This document shows positions 52,135 through 59,986 of a stretch of 64,000 bases of DNA, in pieces. The DNA is from Alistipes sp. (GTDB lineage: Bacteria > Bacteroidota > Bacteroidia > Bacteroidales > Rikenellaceae): positions 2,855 through 66,854 of the forward strand of contig JAFZFX010000005.1 in NCBI GenBank assembly GCA_017555695.1, in the 5' to 3' direction. The notes under the pieces were generated by a model. It was not told the DNA's origin and did not search any database. It saw only the letters and a list, made by a program, of their open reading frames with translations. The position numbers and the translations under genes are program-made. The first letter of the stretch is position 1. Each line of letters begins with the position of its first letter.

Positions 52135-54051
52135 ATGTGTCGCAAATTCTACACTTTGCTTTTGATGACTTGTCTGTTGTCGGTGGCTCAGGCTCAAGTC
52201 AAAAAAGAGAACTACTATCTTGATATCTATCCCGACACCTGGGTGGCAACTGACGATGTTGGTCGCGTGATGCCAACGGCTGCCGATACTCCGCTGAAGA
52301 CAGATAAGGATAGAACAGTCGGCATATTTTATATTACTTGGCATACCCAAAGATGCCACTACGGCAAGCCCTATGTGGCCGATGTTAGCCGAGTGTTGGC
52401 ACAAGATCCTAATGCCAGCCGTGACGGCGATAGTGAGGCGTGGGGTGGCTATGACTCATTTCACTGGGGAGAGCCCGAGTGGGGATATTTCTTGAGTCAG
52501 GATGAGTATGTCATCCGCAAGGATATGTCGATGCTTGCCGATGCGGGTGTCGATGTCATCATCTTCGATGTTACCAATGCCGTACACTATTGGGATGAGT
52601 GGGCTGTAGTATTGCGTACTATGGCGCAGATGAAGAAGGAGGGTAATAAAGTGCCCAAATTCTGCTTCTGGGCCTTCAATGGTAATGTGATTACAGTTGT
52701 CCACGCTCTCTACGATAAGTACTACCGTAATCCCCAATATCAGGACTTGTGGTTCTATTGGCAGGGTAAGCCTCTGTTGCTCTACAATGCTACGCCGAGT
52801 GTGGATGCCAATGTGGGCGGAGGTGAGAAGAACTTGGCCGACTATTCTGACGAGGTCAAGGAGTTCTTTACACTGCGTAATATGTGGTGGGGCTACTATG
52901 AGTGGGCTGGCGAGCGCTATGTCGGCGGCGAGGGTAAGTGGTCCTTCGGTTTGCAGTTGTGCGATGAGAAGGTTGCTAAAATGAAACCCGAGGAGTTGGC
53001 AGCAACCTGGAAGGGTCGCTACGAGCAGATGCCGGTAACACCTGCACAGCATCCCATATCTATGGTAGGTAAGAGCTGGTCGCGCAAGGATGGTCAGCCC
53101 GCTATGGATATATGCGATATGCCCATCAAGGCGCAAGTGCCATATCTTGATAACAAGGTGTGTATCGACCCCGTGCGTTACGGAATCTACTTCCAGGAGC
53201 GTTGGGACGAGGCATTGCAGGTGGATCCCGACTTCATCTATCTTAACGACTGGAATGAGTGGACTGCAGGTAAATATAAGAGCGGTTTTGATCCTGGTGG
53301 TCATCCCACGCCCAGCCTTGATAGCTTCCTTGGTCGTAAAAATCCTTTCTACTTCGTAGACCAGTACAATGCCGAGTATAACCGTACGATTGCCCCGATG
53401 AAGGGAGGCTATACCGACAACTACTATATGCAGATGGTGCAGAATATCCGTCGCTATAAGGGTGTGCGCCCGATTCCCGAGAATAAGGGTGAGGTGAAGA
53501 TTGCGGTCGATGGAAAGATGGCTGATTGGCAGCAGGTTGAGGTCGTATATCGTGATACAAAGGGCGATACGGCTCACCGCGACCACGATGGCTATGGTGA
53601 CCTTCACTATACCGACAAGAGTGGCCGTAACGACATCGTAGAGTGTAAGGTGGCTTGCGATGGCGATAACCTCTACTTCTACGCTGAGGTTGCGGGTAAA
53701 CTCACTCCTGATACCGATAACAATTGGATGATGCTCTTCGTTGATGCCGACCAAAATAGCCAGACAGGATGGCACGGTTATGACTATATGGTAGCCGAGA
53801 AGATGCTCTGCCGTTACGATGCCGAGATTGGTAACTGGGTGAGCGTAGCCGATGTTGCGATGGCTTGTAGCGACAATGCTTTGGAGTTGAAGGTAAAGCG
53901 TAGCGATATGAATCTCAAGGGCAGCAAGATGACCTTCGACTTTAAGTGGGCCGACAATCCCAACAACCTCGACGATGTCATTTCGCTCTGTACTCACGGT
54001 GATACAGCGCCCAACCGTCGATTCAACTTCCGCTACATCTGGAAACGATAA
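52135..54051 (+). CDS. Secreted putative glycoside hydrolase (GH99/GH71-like barrel) with a C-terminal beta-sandwich
   Basis: Signal peptide; VGIFYITWH, P.WGYF.S.D, LADAGVDVIIFD, GKPLL, DWNEW. Confidence 0.6.
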   Translation: MCRKFYTLLLMTCLLSVAQAQVKKENYYLDIYPDTWVATDDVGRVMPTAADTPLKTDKDRTVGIFYITWHTQRCHYGKPYVADVSRVLAQDPNASRDGDSEAWGGYDSFHWGEPEWGYFLSQDEYVIRKDMSMLADAGVDVIIFDVTNAVHYWDEWAVVLRTMAQMKKEGNKVPKFCFWAFNGNVITVVHALYDKYYRNPQYQDLWFYWQGKPLLLYNATPSVDANVGGGEKNLADYSDEVKEFFTLRNMWWGYYEWAGERYVGGEGKWSFGLQLCDEKVAKMKPEELAATWKGRYEQMPVTPAQHPISMVGKSWSRKDGQPAMDICDMPIKAQVPYLDNKVCIDPVRYGIYFQERWDEALQVDPDFIYLNDWNEWTAGKYKSGFDPGGHPTPSLDSFLGRKNPFYFVDQYNAEYNRTIAPMKGGYTDNYYMQMVQNIRRYKGVRPIPENKGEVKIAVDGKMADWQQVEVVYRDTKGDTAHRDHDGYGDLHYTDKSGRNDIVECKVACDGDNLYFYAEVAGKLTPDTDNNWMMLFVDADQNSQTGWHGYDYMVAEKMLCRYDAEIGNWVSVADVAMACSDNALELKVKRSDMNLKGSKMTFDFKWADNPNNLDDVISLCTHGDTAPNRRFNFRYIWKR

Positions 54052-54076
54052 TGGCGTAAGAATTACTGAAAAGTTA

Positions 54077-54117
54077 ATAGGGGTTGTCCTCCATCAGGAC
54101 AACCCCTATATTTTTTT
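54077..54117 (+). terminator. Intrinsic terminator (possibly bidirectional)
   Basis: Perfect 14-bp stem ATAGGGGTTGTCCT/AGGACAACCCCTAT followed by ATTTTTTT. Confidence 0.85.
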
Positions 54118-54136
54118 GTACTCGTTAGCCGCTTTG

Positions 54137-55438
54137 CTATATGAATATCAGCTGAATAAGTATATAGACGGGCAGTAGAATAATCAGCGAGAATTTGAAG
54201 ATATAACCGAAGAAACTCGGCATCTTTACATCGTTCTGCTCGGCTATAGCCTTTACCATAAAGTTGGGACCGTTGCCTATGTATGTGAGCGCTCCAAAGA
54301 AGACTGCGCCCGTTGCAATTGCAGTCAAAATCTGCTCCGGAACACCTGCGATGAGTGTGGCGTCGGCTGCGTGAGGCAGACTCTGTGCCACGGTGTGGAA
54401 TGCTACGGCTGTAGGCGAATTGTCGAGGAATGCTGACAAGAATCCCGCCCCGTAGAAGAACTGCCATGGCTCACTGAAACCGAGTAACTCGGCGTGTTCG
54501 TTCAGATAGACCAGCGCAGGGGTCATAGTGATAAATATGCCGATAAATACCACCGCTACCTCGGTGATGGGCTCCCACGAGAAGTGATTGCCCTCTCTTA
54601 CGCCGCGGCGTGTTGTCATAATTGACATCAATGCGATGATAATCAGTATAATTTCGCGCATTGCCGCCACTCTCAGTGGTGCGTCCTCTGCTCCCATTTG
54701 TGGGAAATACGAGGGGTTGATGTATGCCACTGACAGGATTATGCAGATAAGATAGAAGATATTTATACGACCCGAAAAACGCAATGGCTTCTTCTCTCTG
54801 ACATCGGCGATGATGTTGGCGGTCTCCTCTTTGTAGTAGTATATACGCTTGTCCACCAAGTAGTAACCCAACAGTATGATGCTACCTACTACAGCCCACT
54901 CTGGCAGCAGATTCAGAAACCAGGTAAAGTCTGCACCGCGCAGATATAACAAGAAGAGGGGTGGATCACCGAGTGGTGTCAAGATACCTCCGCAGTTGGC
55001 TACCAACGCAATGAAAACAAGCACCGTGTGGGTGACATATTTTCGCTGTGAATTAAAGTACAACAATGGTCTAATGAGCAACATCGCGGCACCTGTCGTA
55101 CCAATCAGTGAAGCCAACAGATAACCTATTGCCAGCAGTATGGTATTGTTGCGCGGGCGGGCTTGAATATTACCCTGAATTCTGATTCCTCCCGTAACGA
55201 TAAATAGCGCTCCGAGAAGGATGATAAAAGGTAGATAATCGCCAAAAATCATATGGCCTAATTCTTTGCCCATTCCGCTGTATATGAGGTATATACCCGT
55301 CGGAACAGAGAGTGCTAAAGCAACATATAATTTATGCTTATTATCGCTCCACCATTGCTCGGCCAGCAGTGGCATTACGGCTATGCTAAGCAGCATCATC
55401 GCAAAGGGGATGAGTGCCCATAATTCTACTTCGTGCAT
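54137..55438 (-). CDS. Putative sodium:proton antiporter (ion transporter superfamily, CitMHS_2-like)
   Basis: IGTTGAAMLLIRP, ANCGG.LTPLGDPPLFL, LDNSPT, TYIGNGPNFMVK. Confidence 0.85.
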   Translation of the reverse strand: MHEVELWALIPFAMMLLSIAVMPLLAEQWWSDNKHKLYVALALSVPTGIYLIYSGMGKELGHMIFGDYLPFIILLGALFIVTGGIRIQGNIQARPRNNTILLAIGYLLASLIGTTGAAMLLIRPLLYFNSQRKYVTHTVLVFIALVANCGGILTPLGDPPLFLLYLRGADFTWFLNLLPEWAVVGSIILLGYYLVDKRIYYYKEETANIIADVREKKPLRFSGRINIFYLICIILSVAYINPSYFPQMGAEDAPLRVAAMREIILIIIALMSIMTTRRGVREGNHFSWEPITEVAVVFIGIFITMTPALVYLNEHAELLGFSEPWQFFYGAGFLSAFLDNSPTAVAFHTVAQSLPHAADATLIAGVPEQILTAIATGAVFFGALTYIGNGPNFMVKAIAEQNDVKMPSFFGYIFKFSLIILLPVYILIQLIFI

Positions 55439-55463
55439 AATGATTTCTTTGTAAAAAGTACTG

Positions 55464-55471
55464 CAAAAGTA
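55464..55471 (-). promoter_or_regulatory. -7 element for the minus-strand antiporter
   Basis: TACTTTTG on the minus strand 25 nt before the ATG. Confidence 0.55.
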
Positions 55472-55559
55472 GTAATTTTTTTTCGTTTGGTTGTAATTTT
55501 TTATTTCTGCAATAGATTTTTTGTGAGGCTACATTCTTGATAGTATATGAGAAAAAACT

Positions 55560-55567
55560 TATATTTG
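55560..55567 (+). promoter_or_regulatory. -7 element for the small ORF-nhaD transcript
   Basis: TATATTTG ending 4 nt before the GTG at 55572, implying a leaderless or nearly leaderless mRNA. Confidence 0.55.
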
Positions 55568-55571
55568 CAGT

Positions 55572-55910
55572 GTGAATAGGTTAGTTTCAATACTCTTTTT
55601 ACTATTTGTTTATGGTGCAACATCTCTCTCTGCGACGGATGCAGATGTTGTGTCTGAAGTTGTTCCTTGTAGTGAAACTTTCGAAAATCTCACCATATCG
55701 GAAGACCCCAATTCAGAAGGCGTAGTCATCAACGAGAATAATATTACGTTTAGTGTTTCTCCTAAAGTACATCATTCTCATCATCACGCATTTGGAGCGC
55801 ATTATTCGCATTTCGTAAATGCTATTATAGCAGTCCATAATTCCTGCCTTGTAGGCTTTTCGCGTACGATAGATAAATATATCTATTTCTTGCGCCATAT
55901 AATCATTTAG
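55572..55910 (+). CDS. Small secreted His-rich protein, candidate regulatory leader ORF of nhaD
   Basis: Sec-type signal (MNRLVSILFLLFVYGATSLSA), acidic middle, HHSHHHAFGAHYSH, C-terminus DKYIYFLRHIII. Confidence 0.6.
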   Translation: MNRLVSILFLLFVYGATSLSATDADVVSEVVPCSETFENLTISEDPNSEGVVINENNITFSVSPKVHHSHHHAFGAHYSHFVNAIIAVHNSCLVGFSRTIDKYIYFLRHIII

Positions 55911-55914
55911 CCCA

Positions 55915-56010
55915 CGTTTGGATTCCATATTGTCTTTGTACATCTTGAATACACCCTTTTCAAGATAAATCGGGTGTGTCTAAAAATAAGTTGTTTTATC
56001 GAATCAAACG
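55915..56010 (+). promoter_or_regulatory. Structured intercistronic RNA occluding the nhaD initiation region
   Basis: CGTTTGGATTC (55915-25) pairs with GAATCAAACG (56001-10); inner stem ATCTTGAA/TTCAAGAT (55942-49/55959-66) whose loop ACACCC matches GGGTGT (55972-77). Confidence 0.5.
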
Positions 56011-56017
56011 AAGTTTT

Positions 56018-57328
56018 ATGATTATAATGATGATTGCCGTATTCGTTATTGGATATGGATGTATCACTCTTGAACACAAAATCAAAATTGACAAGGCTGC
56101 GACAGCCCTATTTATGTTTGGCCTTATATGGTCGGTTTACGCTCTGTATACGGGCGATGTTAGTGATAGGCTTGTCGAGCATCTGGGTACAACCTGCGAG
56201 ACGCTGATATTCCTGATTGGAGCAATGACGATTGTCGAAGTTATTGATACTCACGGAGGATTTAGCGTTATCACCCGCCGTATCACATCCAGAAATAAGT
56301 TCCATCTGCTGTGGTTGCTCTCCATTTTGACCTTCTTCCTTTCGGCTGTGTTGGATAATATGACCACAACAATCATTATGGTTATGTTGTTGCGTCGTAT
56401 TATACCCGAAAGAGCAGACCGATTACTATTTGCAGCCATCGTAATTATCGCGGCCAATAGTGGTGGCGCTTGGTCGCCCATTGGAGATGTTACAACAATA
56501 ATGCTATGGATGCAGGGTAATGTTAATGCAGGTGGTCTGGTGGGTTATCTTTTCTTGCCGAGCGTAGTCTCGTTGCTTATTCCTACCTATGTCGTTGCGC
56601 GTAAATTTCGCAATGCTCCGCTATTGAGTGCTGATTATATGCAACAAGCCGATAACCAGCAGTATAACGTCGGCCCTCGTGTCAGCCGAGGTGTGCTATT
56701 GGCGGGTGTTTTGAGCCTGCTTTTTGTGCCCGTATTCAAGAGTGCGGTGGGGTTGCCTCCTTATGTCGGCATTATGTTGTCGCTTGGCGCAATGTGGATA
56801 CTAATCGAGATACTCTACGATAGGAAAGGGGTCGAAGAGGATTTGCAACACCGTGTGTCGAAAGTCCTGCACCGAATAGATATGTCTACAATACTCTTTT
56901 TCTTGGGTATATTGATGTCTGTGGCGGGCCTTCAGTCAGCAGGTATACTATCATCGGCGGCTGATTTTCTCGATAAGAATGTCCACGAAGTCTTTACTAT
57001 TGCTTCGACAGTCGGAATATTGTCGGCAATCGTAGATAATGTGCCGTTGGTTGCGGCGTGTATGGGTATGTATCCCGTGGCCGATGAGGCGATGATTGCC
57101 TCTGCCGCCGACCCGCAATATATGCAATTCTTTACTGAAAATGGTTTGTTCTGGTTGCTGCTGACCTATTGTGCTGGCGTTGGTGGTAGTCTGCTTATTA
57201 TTGGCTCAGCAGCAGGAGTCGTGGCTATGGGCTTGGAGAAGATTGATTTTTCGTGGTATCTGAAAAATATATCGTCAGTTATGTTGCTCGGCTACTTTGC
57301 GGGAGTTTTAGTCATCTTTATCGAATAG
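56018..57328 (+). CDS. nhaD: Na+/H+ antiporter NhaD
   Basis: GY..I.LEH..KIDK, FLIGAMTIVE.ID.HGGF, LDNMTT, AANSGGAWSPIGDVTT, IVDNVPLVAA, GGSLLIIGSAAGV. Confidence 0.92.
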   Translation: MIIMMIAVFVIGYGCITLEHKIKIDKAATALFMFGLIWSVYALYTGDVSDRLVEHLGTTCETLIFLIGAMTIVEVIDTHGGFSVITRRITSRNKFHLLWLLSILTFFLSAVLDNMTTTIIMVMLLRRIIPERADRLLFAAIVIIAANSGGAWSPIGDVTTIMLWMQGNVNAGGLVGYLFLPSVVSLLIPTYVVARKFRNAPLLSADYMQQADNQQYNVGPRVSRGVLLAGVLSLLFVPVFKSAVGLPPYVGIMLSLGAMWILIEILYDRKGVEEDLQHRVSKVLHRIDMSTILFFLGILMSVAGLQSAGILSSAADFLDKNVHEVFTIASTVGILSAIVDNVPLVAACMGMYPVADEAMIASAADPQYMQFFTENGLFWLLLTYCAGVGGSLLIIGSAAGVVAMGLEKIDFSWYLKNISSVMLLGYFAGVLVIFIE

Positions 57329-57389
57329 CTCATTTTTATGTAACTACGAATGTCGTCAATGCTATTGCTGCGAGAATCTCGCAACAAAC

Positions 57390-57432
57390 AATGGGGTTGC
57401 ACAACAAGCCGTTGGTTAGCCCCATTTTTTTT
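57390..57432 (+). terminator. Intrinsic terminator after nhaD
   Basis: AATGGGGTTG...TAGCCCCATT followed by a T-run. Confidence 0.65.
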
Positions 57433-57537
57433 GTTTAAGATGTGTTAATTTATAATTTTCTGCACCTTTTTTGAGGCGATTTTTTTGTTTGTTAGTTAAT
57501 ATAACTAAAAGATTTTCTCAGTGTGGCAAAAAATTAC

Positions 57538-57545
57538 TATTTTTG
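57538..57545 (+). promoter_or_regulatory. -7 element for the lon-kds operon
   Basis: TATTTTTG 20 nt before the ATG at 57566. Confidence 0.55.
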
Positions 57546-57565
57546 CAATCGAGAATATTGTAACT

Positions 57566-59986
57566 ATGAGTAAGAAGAATAATATTGATTTGACAGATTT
57601 AGAGGCACTCCCCGATTTGCTTGATGGACGCCATCAGGTAGTGCCCATTATTGCAAGCGGTGACGACATCGTTGAGAATGTAACCATTCCCGAGTCATTG
57701 CCCATTTTGTCGTTGCGCAGTTCAGTACTTTTCCCTGGCGCTATTACACCCATCACGGTTGGTCGTGAGAAGAGCATCAAGTTGGTGCGCGATGTGAATG
57801 CTTCAGGCGGTTTGCTGGGTGCTGTGTTGCAGCGCGAGAGCGAGGTGGAGATTCCTTCGCCCGATGATATGTACAAAGTGGGTACAGCTGCCCGCATCAT
57901 CAAGATATTGGAGATGCCCAATGGCAACCTGACCGTAATACTTAGTGGTTTGGAGAAGATTGAGGTAGGCGAATACCTTCAGTCAGAGCCATATTTGAAG
58001 GCTGTGGTACACACTATCCGCGATTCGCAGCCCGACGAGAATAATGTCGAGTTCCAGGCGCTGGTAGATTCTGTGCGCGAGGTGTCGCTCAACATCATCA
58101 ATATCTCGGCTTCGATGCCCAAGGAGGCGGTTTTTGCTCTTAAGAACCTCGACTCGCCCCGTGGCTTGATTAACTTCGTTTGCTCGAATATGGACTTTAC
58201 CGACGACGACCGTCAGGCGTTGTTGGAGGCTCCAGGTTTGTTGGCTCGTGCGCGCAAGTTGCTTGAGATTTTGGTGCGTGAGCAGCAGATGGCCGAACTC
58301 AAGAACGAGATTCAGGAAAAGGTTAAGCGCGAAATCGACAAGCAGCAGCGTGACTACTACCTGCAGCAGCAGATGCGTACCATCCAGGATGAGTTGGGTG
58401 ATGGCGCTGATGCCGAGATCGAGCAGATGCGCGAGCAGGCCAAGCAGAAGAATTGGAACAAAGAGATAGGTGAACTCTTCGAGAAGGAGTTGCAGAAGGT
58501 TGAGCGTTTGAATCCAGCCGTTGCGGAGTATTCGGTGCAGATGACATACCTGCAGTTGATGCTGGAGTTGCCGTGGAACGATGTTACGAAGGATAACCTC
58601 GATTTGGAGTGTGCCCGCAAGCAGCTCGATGACGATCACTTCGGTCTTGAGGAGGTGAAGGATAGAATCTTGGAGCATTTGGCCGTTATCAAACTTAAGG
58701 GCGATTTGAAATCACCCATCTTGTGCCTGTATGGCCCTCCGGGCGTTGGTAAGACTTCGCTCGGTCGCTCGGTCGCTACGGCTTTGGATCGTAAGTTTGG
58801 TCGCATCTCATTAGGCGGTCTGCACGATGAGTCAGAGATTCGTGGCCACCGTCGTACATACATCGGTGCTATGCCTGGTCGAATCATTCAGACCATCAAG
58901 CGTTGCAAGTCGTCTAACCCTGTAATCATTCTCGACGAGGTTGATAAGATTACCGTGAGCAATCACGGCGACCCCTCGTCAGCATTGTTGGAGGTGTTGG
59001 ATCCCGAGCAGAACACTACATTCCACGATAACTACCTCGATACAGAGTACGACCTCTCGAAGGTGTTGTTTATCGCTACGGCTAACGATATTGGCGCTAT
59101 AAATCCTGCGTTGCGTGACCGTATGGAGATGATTAATATTCCTGGATACATTCTCGAAGATAAGATTCGTATCGCTGCTGATCACCTTGTTCGCAAGCAG
59201 TGTGAGGCGCACGGCGTGAAGCCCGAGGAGTTTATTCTTTCGAATGAAATTCTTGAGAAGATAATCTCTGATTATACTCGCGAGTCGGGTGTTCGCTCTC
59301 TGGATAAGAATATTGCCAAGTTGGTGCGCGCACGAGCAAAGCATATCGCATTCGACGAGGCCTTTGCTCCCGAGCTTTCTGCAGCCGACATCGAGAAGAT
59401 TTTGGGTAAGCCCCGCTTCCGCAACGACGAGTATGAGATTGCGGGTATGGTTGGGGTGGTTACAGGTCTGGCGTGGACAGCAGTGGGTGGCGACATCCTC
59501 TACATCGAGTCAGTCCTCACTCCTGGTAAGGGTGCTCTTAACTTGACTGGTAACCTCGGTGATGTGATGAAGGAGTCAGCAACAATCGCTTATGAGTGGG
59601 TGCAGGCTCACCACGAGGAGTTGGGTATTGCAGCCGAGCGATTCGAGAAGCACAACATTAATATCCATGTTCCCGAGGGCGCAGTACCCAAGGATGGCCC
59701 GTCGGCTGGTATCACTATGGTGACATCTATCGTATCGACATACACTGGCCGCGAGGTCAAGGAGCGTATCGCAATGACTGGCGAGATGACTCTGCGTGGT
59801 AGAGTTATGCCCGTGGGCGGTATCAAGGAGAAGATTCTTGCGGCGAAGCGTGCTGGCATCAACGAACTGATATTGTGCGAGGATAACCGCAAGGATGTCG
59901 AGGAGATTAAGCCCGAATATGTAGAGGGTCTTAACTTCCACTATGTTAAGATGATTGACGAGGTTCTGGCCTTGGCGCTGAAATAG
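57566..59986 (+). CDS. lon: Lon protease (endopeptidase La)
   Basis: GPPGVGKTS, RGHRRTYIGAMPG, PKDGPSAG, GGIKEK. Confidence 0.97.
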   Translation: MSKKNNIDLTDLEALPDLLDGRHQVVPIIASGDDIVENVTIPESLPILSLRSSVLFPGAITPITVGREKSIKLVRDVNASGGLLGAVLQRESEVEIPSPDDMYKVGTAARIIKILEMPNGNLTVILSGLEKIEVGEYLQSEPYLKAVVHTIRDSQPDENNVEFQALVDSVREVSLNIINISASMPKEAVFALKNLDSPRGLINFVCSNMDFTDDDRQALLEAPGLLARARKLLEILVREQQMAELKNEIQEKVKREIDKQQRDYYLQQQMRTIQDELGDGADAEIEQMREQAKQKNWNKEIGELFEKELQKVERLNPAVAEYSVQMTYLQLMLELPWNDVTKDNLDLECARKQLDDDHFGLEEVKDRILEHLAVIKLKGDLKSPILCLYGPPGVGKTSLGRSVATALDRKFGRISLGGLHDESEIRGHRRTYIGAMPGRIIQTIKRCKSSNPVIILDEVDKITVSNHGDPSSALLEVLDPEQNTTFHDNYLDTEYDLSKVLFIATANDIGAINPALRDRMEMINIPGYILEDKIRIAADHLVRKQCEAHGVKPEEFILSNEILEKIISDYTRESGVRSLDKNIAKLVRARAKHIAFDEAFAPELSAADIEKILGKPRFRNDEYEIAGMVGVVTGLAWTAVGGDILYIESVLTPGKGALNLTGNLGDVMKESATIAYEWVQAHHEELGIAAERFEKHNINIHVPEGAVPKDGPSAGITMVTSIVSTYTGREVKERIAMTGEMTLRGRVMPVGGIKEKILAAKRAGINELILCEDNRKDVEEIKPEYVEGLNFHYVKMIDEVLALALK

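Follow-up and report, generated by a model that had tools for sequence, protein, structure and literature searches.

Export-monitoring arrest peptides are known as feedback devices on the Sec and YidC machines. SecM, VemP, MifM and LudP share a layout in which a small, unannotated upstream open reading frame (ORF) with an N-terminal export signal, a long spacer and a conserved C-terminus is combined with a stem over the next start (PMC10987492; 10.64898/2026.10.26.761930), and VemP arrest reports reduced Na+-driven SecD1/F1 function (PMC11470409). The same layout is found in the stretch of DNA analysed here (the window, 64,000 nucleotides (nt) from Alistipes sp., contig JAFZFX010000005.1), in which an ORF of 112 amino acids (aa) lies upstream of the Na+/H+ antiporter gene nhaD. 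The original prediction proposed that this ORF encodes a secretion-monitoring leader peptide controlling nhaD. Judged by its sequence, the ORF is a member of an unannotated leader family of the Bacteroidales, whose members combine a signal peptide and a variable middle with the tail Y[IV][YF]xLRxIxI-stop. On balance, the leader probably acts in cis: the ribosome would arrest at termination, a stem over the nhaD start would open, and export would end the arrest.

The family departs from the described monitoring substrates in its targets, which are ion pumps, antiporters and other membrane genes rather than sec or yidC, in its unrelated motif, and in the presence of several copies per genome ahead of different operons. 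Furthermore, because initiation in the Bacteroidetes proceeds without Shine-Dalgarno pairing and depends on structure and upstream adenines (PMC6847099), the stem would hide an A-rich region and the AUG. Held against the features by which monitoring substrates were screened (PMC10987492), the family shows three of the four: a length of 112–149 aa in unannotated or hypothetical proteins, an N-terminal signal by a hydropathy rule, and a conserved C-terminus more than 30 residues past the signal. Only the position next to sec or yidC is absent.

Arrest at a stop codon has precedents. The NSP/NAP-stop peptides share with the family the phylum Bacteroidota and a motif flush with the stop codon, which they need for arrest (PMC10987492), yet their last residue is Pro and they stand ahead of secA or secDF, neither of which holds for the family; five spellings of the family tail were absent from 12 supplementary files of that paper. 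In C. difficile, CliM (uC_KYxIW, Clostridia) causes arrest at termination by means of its helical tail and of a bulky residue in the penultimate position (PMC13183943). Its K66, 11 residues from the end, is in the same register as K102 of the window leader, and Tyr follows in both. However, CliM depends on Trp70 and on numerous residues as far back as R49, carries its Arg at -6 rather than at the family's -5, and is a membrane protein ahead of yidC in a Gram-positive organism, unlike the Bacteroidales family. As for the KYxIW motif itself, Lys is found at -11 in 3 of 83 members and Trp is not among the commonest residues at -7. The resemblance to CliM is a lead rather than demonstrated homology. 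The RAPP/RGPP leaders, including CruR (DUF2946), are signal-bearing, end in an arrest motif and precede non-Sec genes (TonB receptors, copper genes), as here (PMC12992588), whereas the family has no RAPP-like motif, no Pro in the tail and no conserved metal ligands. Column counts over the last 16–20 residues gave no RAPP-like motif (RAPP/RQH family, SecM, ApcA/ApdA/ApdP), and none of 40 members matched DUF2946 at E≤0.5. Together, the features shared with monitoring substrates, the stop-codon precedents in the same phylum and in CliM, and the Na+ link of VemP favour an arrest mechanism.

A leader family and its conserved tail

The signal peptide, the His cluster 33–46 residues from the C-terminus and the ending DKYIYFLRHIII-TAG, all named in the original prediction, are present in the window leader. 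Its N-terminus is hydrophobic by hydropathy, and an AlphaFold model places helices at residues 2–23 and 76–111. Neither this ORF nor the other family members match Pfam or NCBIfam. Rfam gave no match at E≤1 within positions 54000–58000, a single-sequence protein search with the leader returned its own cluster as the sole match, tblastn against plasmids returned none, and PDB sequence searches with a leader profile gave nothing significant.

Among 93 nhaD-type loci (14, including the window's own, plus 79 from a second search), a same-strand upstream ORF with the same terminal motif was present at 30. The 63 negative loci include seven with less than 600 nt of upstream DNA and one that was mis-anchored, and three further, divergent leaders at nhaD loci were found later. 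When aligned, the leaders from nhaD loci have a hydrophobic N-terminus, a middle nearly without conserved columns and the tail R-x-x-D-x-Y-[IV]-Y-x-[LF]-R-x-I-I-I, and they end in ATT in 30 of 30 cases and stop at TAG in 27 of 30. A gene for a 166-aa membrane protein stands between leader and nhaD at 7 of the 30 loci.

The family extends well beyond nhaD. A profile search of 1.84 billion representative proteins gave 79 matches at E≤0.001, and a DNA pattern scan of metagenomes gave at least 120 rows with at least 50 distinct tails, including proteins named hypothetical in Bacteroides, Phocaeicola and Odoribacter. A tail-only profile (last 33 residues), run on genome samples of the order and of three families, found at least 102 loci. 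Among the tail-profile matches listed, the motif was C-terminal in 86 of 102, and 80 of those 86 had a hydrophobic N-terminus by the hydropathy rule, with about 110–150 residues from the hydrophobic stretch to the C-terminus; since this profile is blind to the N-terminus, the stretch was not selected for by the search. An order-wide sample yielded matches in 15 of 301 genomes, 12 of them true and spread over 9 families. In a 300-genome sample of the phylum, a full-length profile, which is not as sensitive as the tail-only one, produced no match outside the Bacteroidales that extended into the tail.

Members, 112–149 aa long in a set of 40, are mutually just 10–30% identical, and genomes hold up to three copies, which precede different operons where checked. 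The window's own genome holds a second, divergent copy (L408, C23:21690-22100, minus strand) of 136 aa, ending YYLHTLCRLRI with ATT-TAG-C and lying 260 nt ahead of a two-helix gene and a K+/H+ antiporter-like gene, with a closing stem predicted. Because this copy was missed by the profile, the family counts are lower bounds. Five metagenome copies with a broken leader frame, seemingly assembly or read errors, were excluded from the tests.

No account of the family was found in the literature, including the supplements of PMC10987492, in a search with subscription papers largely outside its coverage, and the original prediction had likewise known of no such system for NhaD. A look-alike cluster in the ESM Atlas, from Bacteroidota and 123 aa long (score 0.95, 166 shared features), carries Pfam DUF8440 (PF28586) in 34% of its members; DUF8440, to which no function is attached, may cover part of the family. 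On these sequence comparisons, this is a real, widespread and previously undescribed leader family, outside the named arrest-peptide families tested.

Conservation in the tail takes two forms. Over 83 members, Tyr is found at -10 in 69, Arg at -5 in 79, Ile at -3 in 77 and Ile at -1 in 77, and the penultimate residue is Ile, Val or Leu in 82. The codons behind these residues vary synonymously, with five types for Arg, CTG, TTG or TTA for Leu, and varied choices for Tyr and the first Ile. At the stop itself, the nucleotides too are conserved: of 23 non-redundant members, none found via the DNA pattern, 22 end in an ATT codon, 17 stop with TAG and 19 have a C directly after the stop, while genome-wide ATT makes up 33% of Ile codons and TAG 313 of 1005 stops. 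When pattern-found loci are included, ATT ends 75 and TAG stops 51 of the 83 members (36 and 26, respectively, of 43 profile-found members), and TAG is followed by C at 31 of 47 two-helix and nhaD loci, as against 70 of 1005 long ORFs genome-wide. The ratio of nonsynonymous to synonymous substitution (dN/dS) is 0.07 over the last 12 codons versus 0.21–0.27 elsewhere (18 pairs), a contrast that is in part circular, since the motif itself served to find some of the pairs. The free synonymous choice within the tail and the conserved nucleotides at the stop argue for selection on the peptide in the tail and on the RNA in the stop context.

The proposal that the His cluster senses pH or metal found no support in the comparison: the number of His residues in positions -60 to -15 runs from 0 to 9 (median 2) over 40 members, and His-based sensing was rejected as a family trait. 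Cys is found at positions 11–24 in 17 of the 40. A frameshift or read-through fusion into the next gene was also rejected, since the leader-to-gene spacers, 55–371 nt long across the 83 members, fall in all three frames (34/25/24).

Pairing between the leader stop and the downstream start

In the window, the leader and nhaD are separated by 107 nt, and nhaD homologues begin at the same Met as the window protein (ATG at 56018), which passes the NCBIfam model NhaD_1 (NF038006, 140.5 bits, cut-off 80) and fails TIGR00775 (343.9, cut-off 577). The pairing of the stop side with the region upstream of nhaD, first described as 10 bp, is present and belongs to a longer stem: 55915–55925 pairs with 56001–56010 (10 bp, one bulged G), 55909–55911 with 56013–56015, and 55898–55906, in the Ile codons, with 56018–56026, the AUG and two codons after it. 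The 181-nt stem region folds with z = -3.14, and none of 200 shuffles was as stable. Between the arms, the hairpin 55949–55956/55972–55979 is present in the predicted fold. Opening the nhaD start costs 13.7 kcal/mol, and about 10 less with a modelled ribosome on the last leader codon. This ribosome opens the start only with codons 108–112 in its P site (gain 8.2–10.0 kcal/mol), compared with a gain of just -0.3 to 2.2 kcal/mol on codons 60–104; a ribosome on codons 108–112 is predicted to free the nhaD start. The features are collected in Table 1.

Table 1. Leader, stem and nhaD features of the window, with the basis for each assignment
Feature	Position	Strand	Basis
-7 promoter element TAnnTTTG, Bacteroidetes type	55560..55567	+	Sequence; recurs in family; homologous box mapped for BT_4068
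Leader ORF, 112 aa, GTG start, TAG stop	55572..55910	+	Member of the YxYxLRxIxI-stop family
Signal peptide or signal anchor, about residues 1–21, putative cleavage site	55572..55634	+	Hydropathy; AlphaFold helix; homologues
His cluster, residues 67–80, non-conserved	55770..55811	+	Family count
Conserved tail R98-x-x-D-x-Y-I-Y-x-L-R-x-I-I-I112 with ATT-TAG, candidate arrest motif	55863..55910	+	Family conservation
Closing stem, 5' arm: Ile codons, stop and next bases	55898..55925	+	Predicted fold; 5' two thirds would lie under a ribosome halted at the stop
Inner spacer: two mutually exclusive 8-bp hairpins, 55942–55949/55959–55966 and 55949–55956/55972–55979	55942..55979	+	Sequence reading
Closing stem, 3' arm: nhaD A-rich initiation region and AUG	56001..56026	+	Predicted fold
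nhaD-type sodium:proton antiporter, 436 aa	56018..57328	+	NF038006 above cut-off; PF03600

The window helix is not kept letter for letter across the family, and therefore the pairing of each stop region (-12 to +22) with its own downstream start region (-36 to +6) was compared with its pairing to the start regions of other loci. The starts of the downstream genes were set by rule, in some cases by manual choice, and the folding is a model. Three non-overlapping sets of loci were used: 40 of 68 loci with leader identity below 60%, 43 new loci left after removal of 6 unclassified ones and 2 with failed start assignment, and 26 further loci anchored on the two-helix gene. The own start was the best partner in 12 of 40, 14 of 43 and 11 of 26 loci, respectively, each with p = 5e-5, although these p values are overstated because related loci are not independent. 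By class, set 1 gave p = 0.009 for nhaD and p = 5e-5 for two-helix loci; its five shifted-window controls gave p = 0.044–0.78, and four draws of 40 ordinary gene pairs produced no first ranks. The arms map to about -12 to +15 around the stop, which is the footprint of a ribosome at the stop codon, and to -30 to -2 before the AUG.

The effect of that footprint was modelled at 62 loci by forcing it unpaired and asking for a start at least 2 kcal/mol cheaper to open. Two-helix loci reached this value in 18 of 21 cases. A stem over the downstream start that is opened by the modelled ribosome is predicted for the window and for the majority of the two-helix, exbB and small-gene loci; in the same computation, it was not found at nuoA loci or at most long-spacer nhaD loci. 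The nuoA loci keep the tail without a stop/start stem, and the output there would be a different one. In a window-pair scan for an alternative nuoA stem, two of about 60 cells tested had z values of -3.3 and -4.0.

Downstream genes and promoters

The first gene after the leader was classified at 82 distinct loci. It belongs to a two-helix cluster at 44 (35 of a 130–195-aa family and 9 small proteins of about 70 aa), and is nuoA at 12, with one more picked wrongly as nuoB. At 7 loci it is of exbB/tolQ type and at 4 a small gene ahead of the beta subunit of an Na+-translocating decarboxylase; the rest comprise nhaD (3), dedA (2), a Ca/Na antiporter (1), unclassified genes (7) and none (1). No sec or yidC was seen among the classified first genes (7 of 82 being unclassified). 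Genes in second or third place include antiporters of the Ca/Na and K+/H+ types, nhaD, exbD, and DUF47 paired with a PiT phosphate transporter; others (LrgAB, folE, a mutase subunit) are single or unrelated. The supposed specificity for NhaD is thus not borne out, nhaD being a minority target. The profile was built from members ahead of such genes, with the Ca/Na and K/H antiporter classes absent from it. The ion-transport systems among these targets are known to generate, interconvert or consume the proton or sodium motive force, and DedA is linked to one or the other.

With the two-helix gene as anchor, a leader was found upstream at 41 of 46 loci (two rows being one tandem locus, and one partial); with nuoA as anchor in the Bacteroidaceae, at 9 of 30. 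The two-helix membrane protein, of 160–185 aa (L199, L324, L031 and others), is nearly always behind a leader, and helix-less versions occur in some genomes (L315, L316, L375). It has no family match, a PDB sequence search with its profile gave nothing significant, and its model (predicted local distance difference test, pLDDT, 91), searched whole, had no Foldseek match at E≤0.001; VIA-align of the model gave generic helical-hairpin matches alone, over residues 22–78. At eight loci of one family (L343, L380, L385, L386, L389, L394, L398, L399), the leader is followed by two genes of about 66–70 aa, each with two hydrophobic helices, and in several by a Ca/Na antiporter after them; the small proteins tested from these loci had no NCBIfam match.

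The promoter arrangement is also shared. In the window, TATATTTG at 55560–55567 lies 4 nt ahead of the GTG at 55572, as the original prediction stated together with the 112-aa ORF, and its claim that no such element separates the leader from nhaD is confirmed, the spacer having no TAnnTTTG. Across 40 non-redundant loci, TAnnTTTG is found within 60 nt before the leader start in 36 and in the spacer in just 3. The promoter sequence of BT_4068, a 378-nt hypothetical gene of B. thetaiotaomicron, matches that of family locus L238; in each of the three growth phases, BT_4068 is transcribed from a primary start site 6 nt past the -7 box, giving a 14-nt leader (PMC7366714). The same offset in the window would place the start at the GTG itself, so that a leaderless start is plausible there; it is not general, as the box lies 12–42 nt ahead of the other leader starts. 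The features chosen beforehand for checking, namely motif, signal peptide, variable middle and stop-arm/start-arm stem, were all found across the Bacteroidales, and so was a single upstream promoter.

Downstream of BT_4068, nuoA (BT_4067) has an internal site alone, in stationary phase, with no primary site listed, and a predicted terminator with a coverage decrease lies 37–71 nt past the BT_4068 stop (PMC7366714). The terminator-annotated hairpin in this spacer (L238) is 35 nt long, and a second hairpin covers the nuoA start region. At another locus, L170, the raw-read runs X23 and X24, taken as RNA by guess and with strand bias as for RNA, show sense coverage through leader, spacer and nuoA without a downstream drop. 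A scan of the spacers did not support a conserved intrinsic terminator or a C-rich Rho site past the stop. The spacers of eight long-spacer loci (L022, L023, L029, L030, L044, L045, L047, L091) hold a conserved 11–13-bp GC stem with a long pyrimidine-rich loop, then a U run 20–30 nt before the nhaD start, an arrangement that is terminator-like.

Around the window leader, a divergent CitMHS_2 (PF16980) transporter gene (54137–55438, minus strand) has its own -7 box at 55464–55471; in several relatives it lies on the same strand, directly upstream of the leader. Comparison of 55572–57328 with another Alistipes genome (L024) shows leader, spacer and nhaD to be 98–99% identical, with flanking genes at 72% and 86%, which suggests that the leader-nhaD unit was recently exchanged as a block between Alistipes genomes.

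Mechanism and alternatives

In the cis-acting mechanism, the conserved tail would hold the ribosome at the leader stop codon, and the halted ribosome would melt the stem over the nhaD start and so turn translation on, until the translocon, pulling on the signal peptide, releases the arrest. Arrest at termination and release by pulling are proposed because SecM, VemP, CliM and the NSP/NAP-stop peptides of the Bacteroidota offer analogies. If the proton or sodium motive force were weak, export would slow and the ribosome would stall, which in turn would bring up the levels of complex I, the Na+ pump, the cation/proton antiporters and ExbBD. This sensed condition is read from the list of targets; a weak ion motive force as the input is likely, and is the least supported part of the scheme.

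Several observations weigh against this mechanism. The nuoA loci lack the stop-arm/start-arm stem (p = 0.91 and 0.84 in sets 1 and 2), and the modelled footprint reaches 2 kcal/mol at none of 15 nuoA loci and at just 5 of 20 nhaD loci. One of nine shifted-window controls of the pairing test was marginal (p = 0.044), in addition to the overstatement of the p values noted above. The leader is patchy, at 30 of 93 nhaD loci, with the three divergent ones in addition, and at 9 of 30 nuoA loci, and purifying selection on the middle (dN/dS 0.24) is stronger than a plain linker may need. Finally, the two-helix gene, the most frequent target, is of no known function, which leaves the ion-motive-force theme to be carried by the remaining targets.

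The stem and the nucleotide conservation at the stop, including the excess of TAG-C, need no arrest peptide. They could arise from unregulated translational coupling, in which finishing ribosomes briefly open the stem, aided by a slow ATT-TAG-C context, with no signal-dependent arrest. Such coupling is unlikely, however, for it leaves unexplained the conservation of residues -10 to -5, mostly upstream of the stem arm and with free codon choice, the signal peptide held at a fixed distance, and the same tail at nuoA loci without the stem. The constraint on the middle, the helix modelled at residues 76–111 and the regular presence of a leader upstream of the two-helix gene would also suit a conventional small protein, exported or anchored in the membrane, that binds a partner such as the two-helix protein through its C-terminal helix while the stem tunes co-expression. 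Yet the same tail precedes unrelated operons without a two-helix gene (nuoA, exbB, decarboxylase, dedA), up to three copies occur per genome before different operons where checked, members are so little alike, and a fixed last codon is unexpected for a trans-acting protein; we give this explanation rather little credence.

Targets that handle Na+, K+, Ca2+ and H+, together with the His cluster of the window copy and the N-terminal Cys of 17 of 40 members, could point to an arrest peptide that is itself the sensor of an ion, of pH or of a metal, within the exit tunnel or in the periplasm, like CruR/CutF or TnaC. CruR and CutF carry a conserved metal-binding Cys/His motif, whereas outside the tail the family has no conserved His, Cys or acidic motif, and DUF2946 matched none of the 40 members compared; direct sensing is accordingly improbable. 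Control of transcription termination in the spacer by the stalled ribosome, at least at nuoA loci, is very unlikely. Although the flagged coverage decrease past BT_4068 and an 11-bp GC stem followed by a U run at long-spacer nhaD loci would fit such attenuation, a strict hairpin-plus-U scan was positive in just 1 of 16 nuoA, 5 of 30 two-helix and 2 of 11 nhaD spacers, the BT_4068 spacer hairpin was unaltered by the modelled ribosome, and the two raw-read runs showed no drop between leader and nuoA.

A broader proposal, which is possible and put forward tentatively, is that this one secreted arrest-peptide family constitutes a protein-free membrane-energy regulon. Each copy would read the ion motive force as its own export speed, and stalling at its stop codon would set the translation of complex I, an Na+ pump, three kinds of cation antiporter, ExbBD, DedA/PiT and the two-helix protein. 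The uncharacterised two-helix membrane protein is pointed to as the main regulated gene and, if the proposal is true, would be a new player in ion homeostasis. BT_4068, at the head of the complex I operon, would gain a likely function and offer a genetically tractable model. Such a switch would then be seen to operate without Shine-Dalgarno pairing, and the principle of export monitoring would extend to membrane-energy homeostasis, that is, to respiration, sodium pumping and cation/proton exchange, in dominant gut bacteria.

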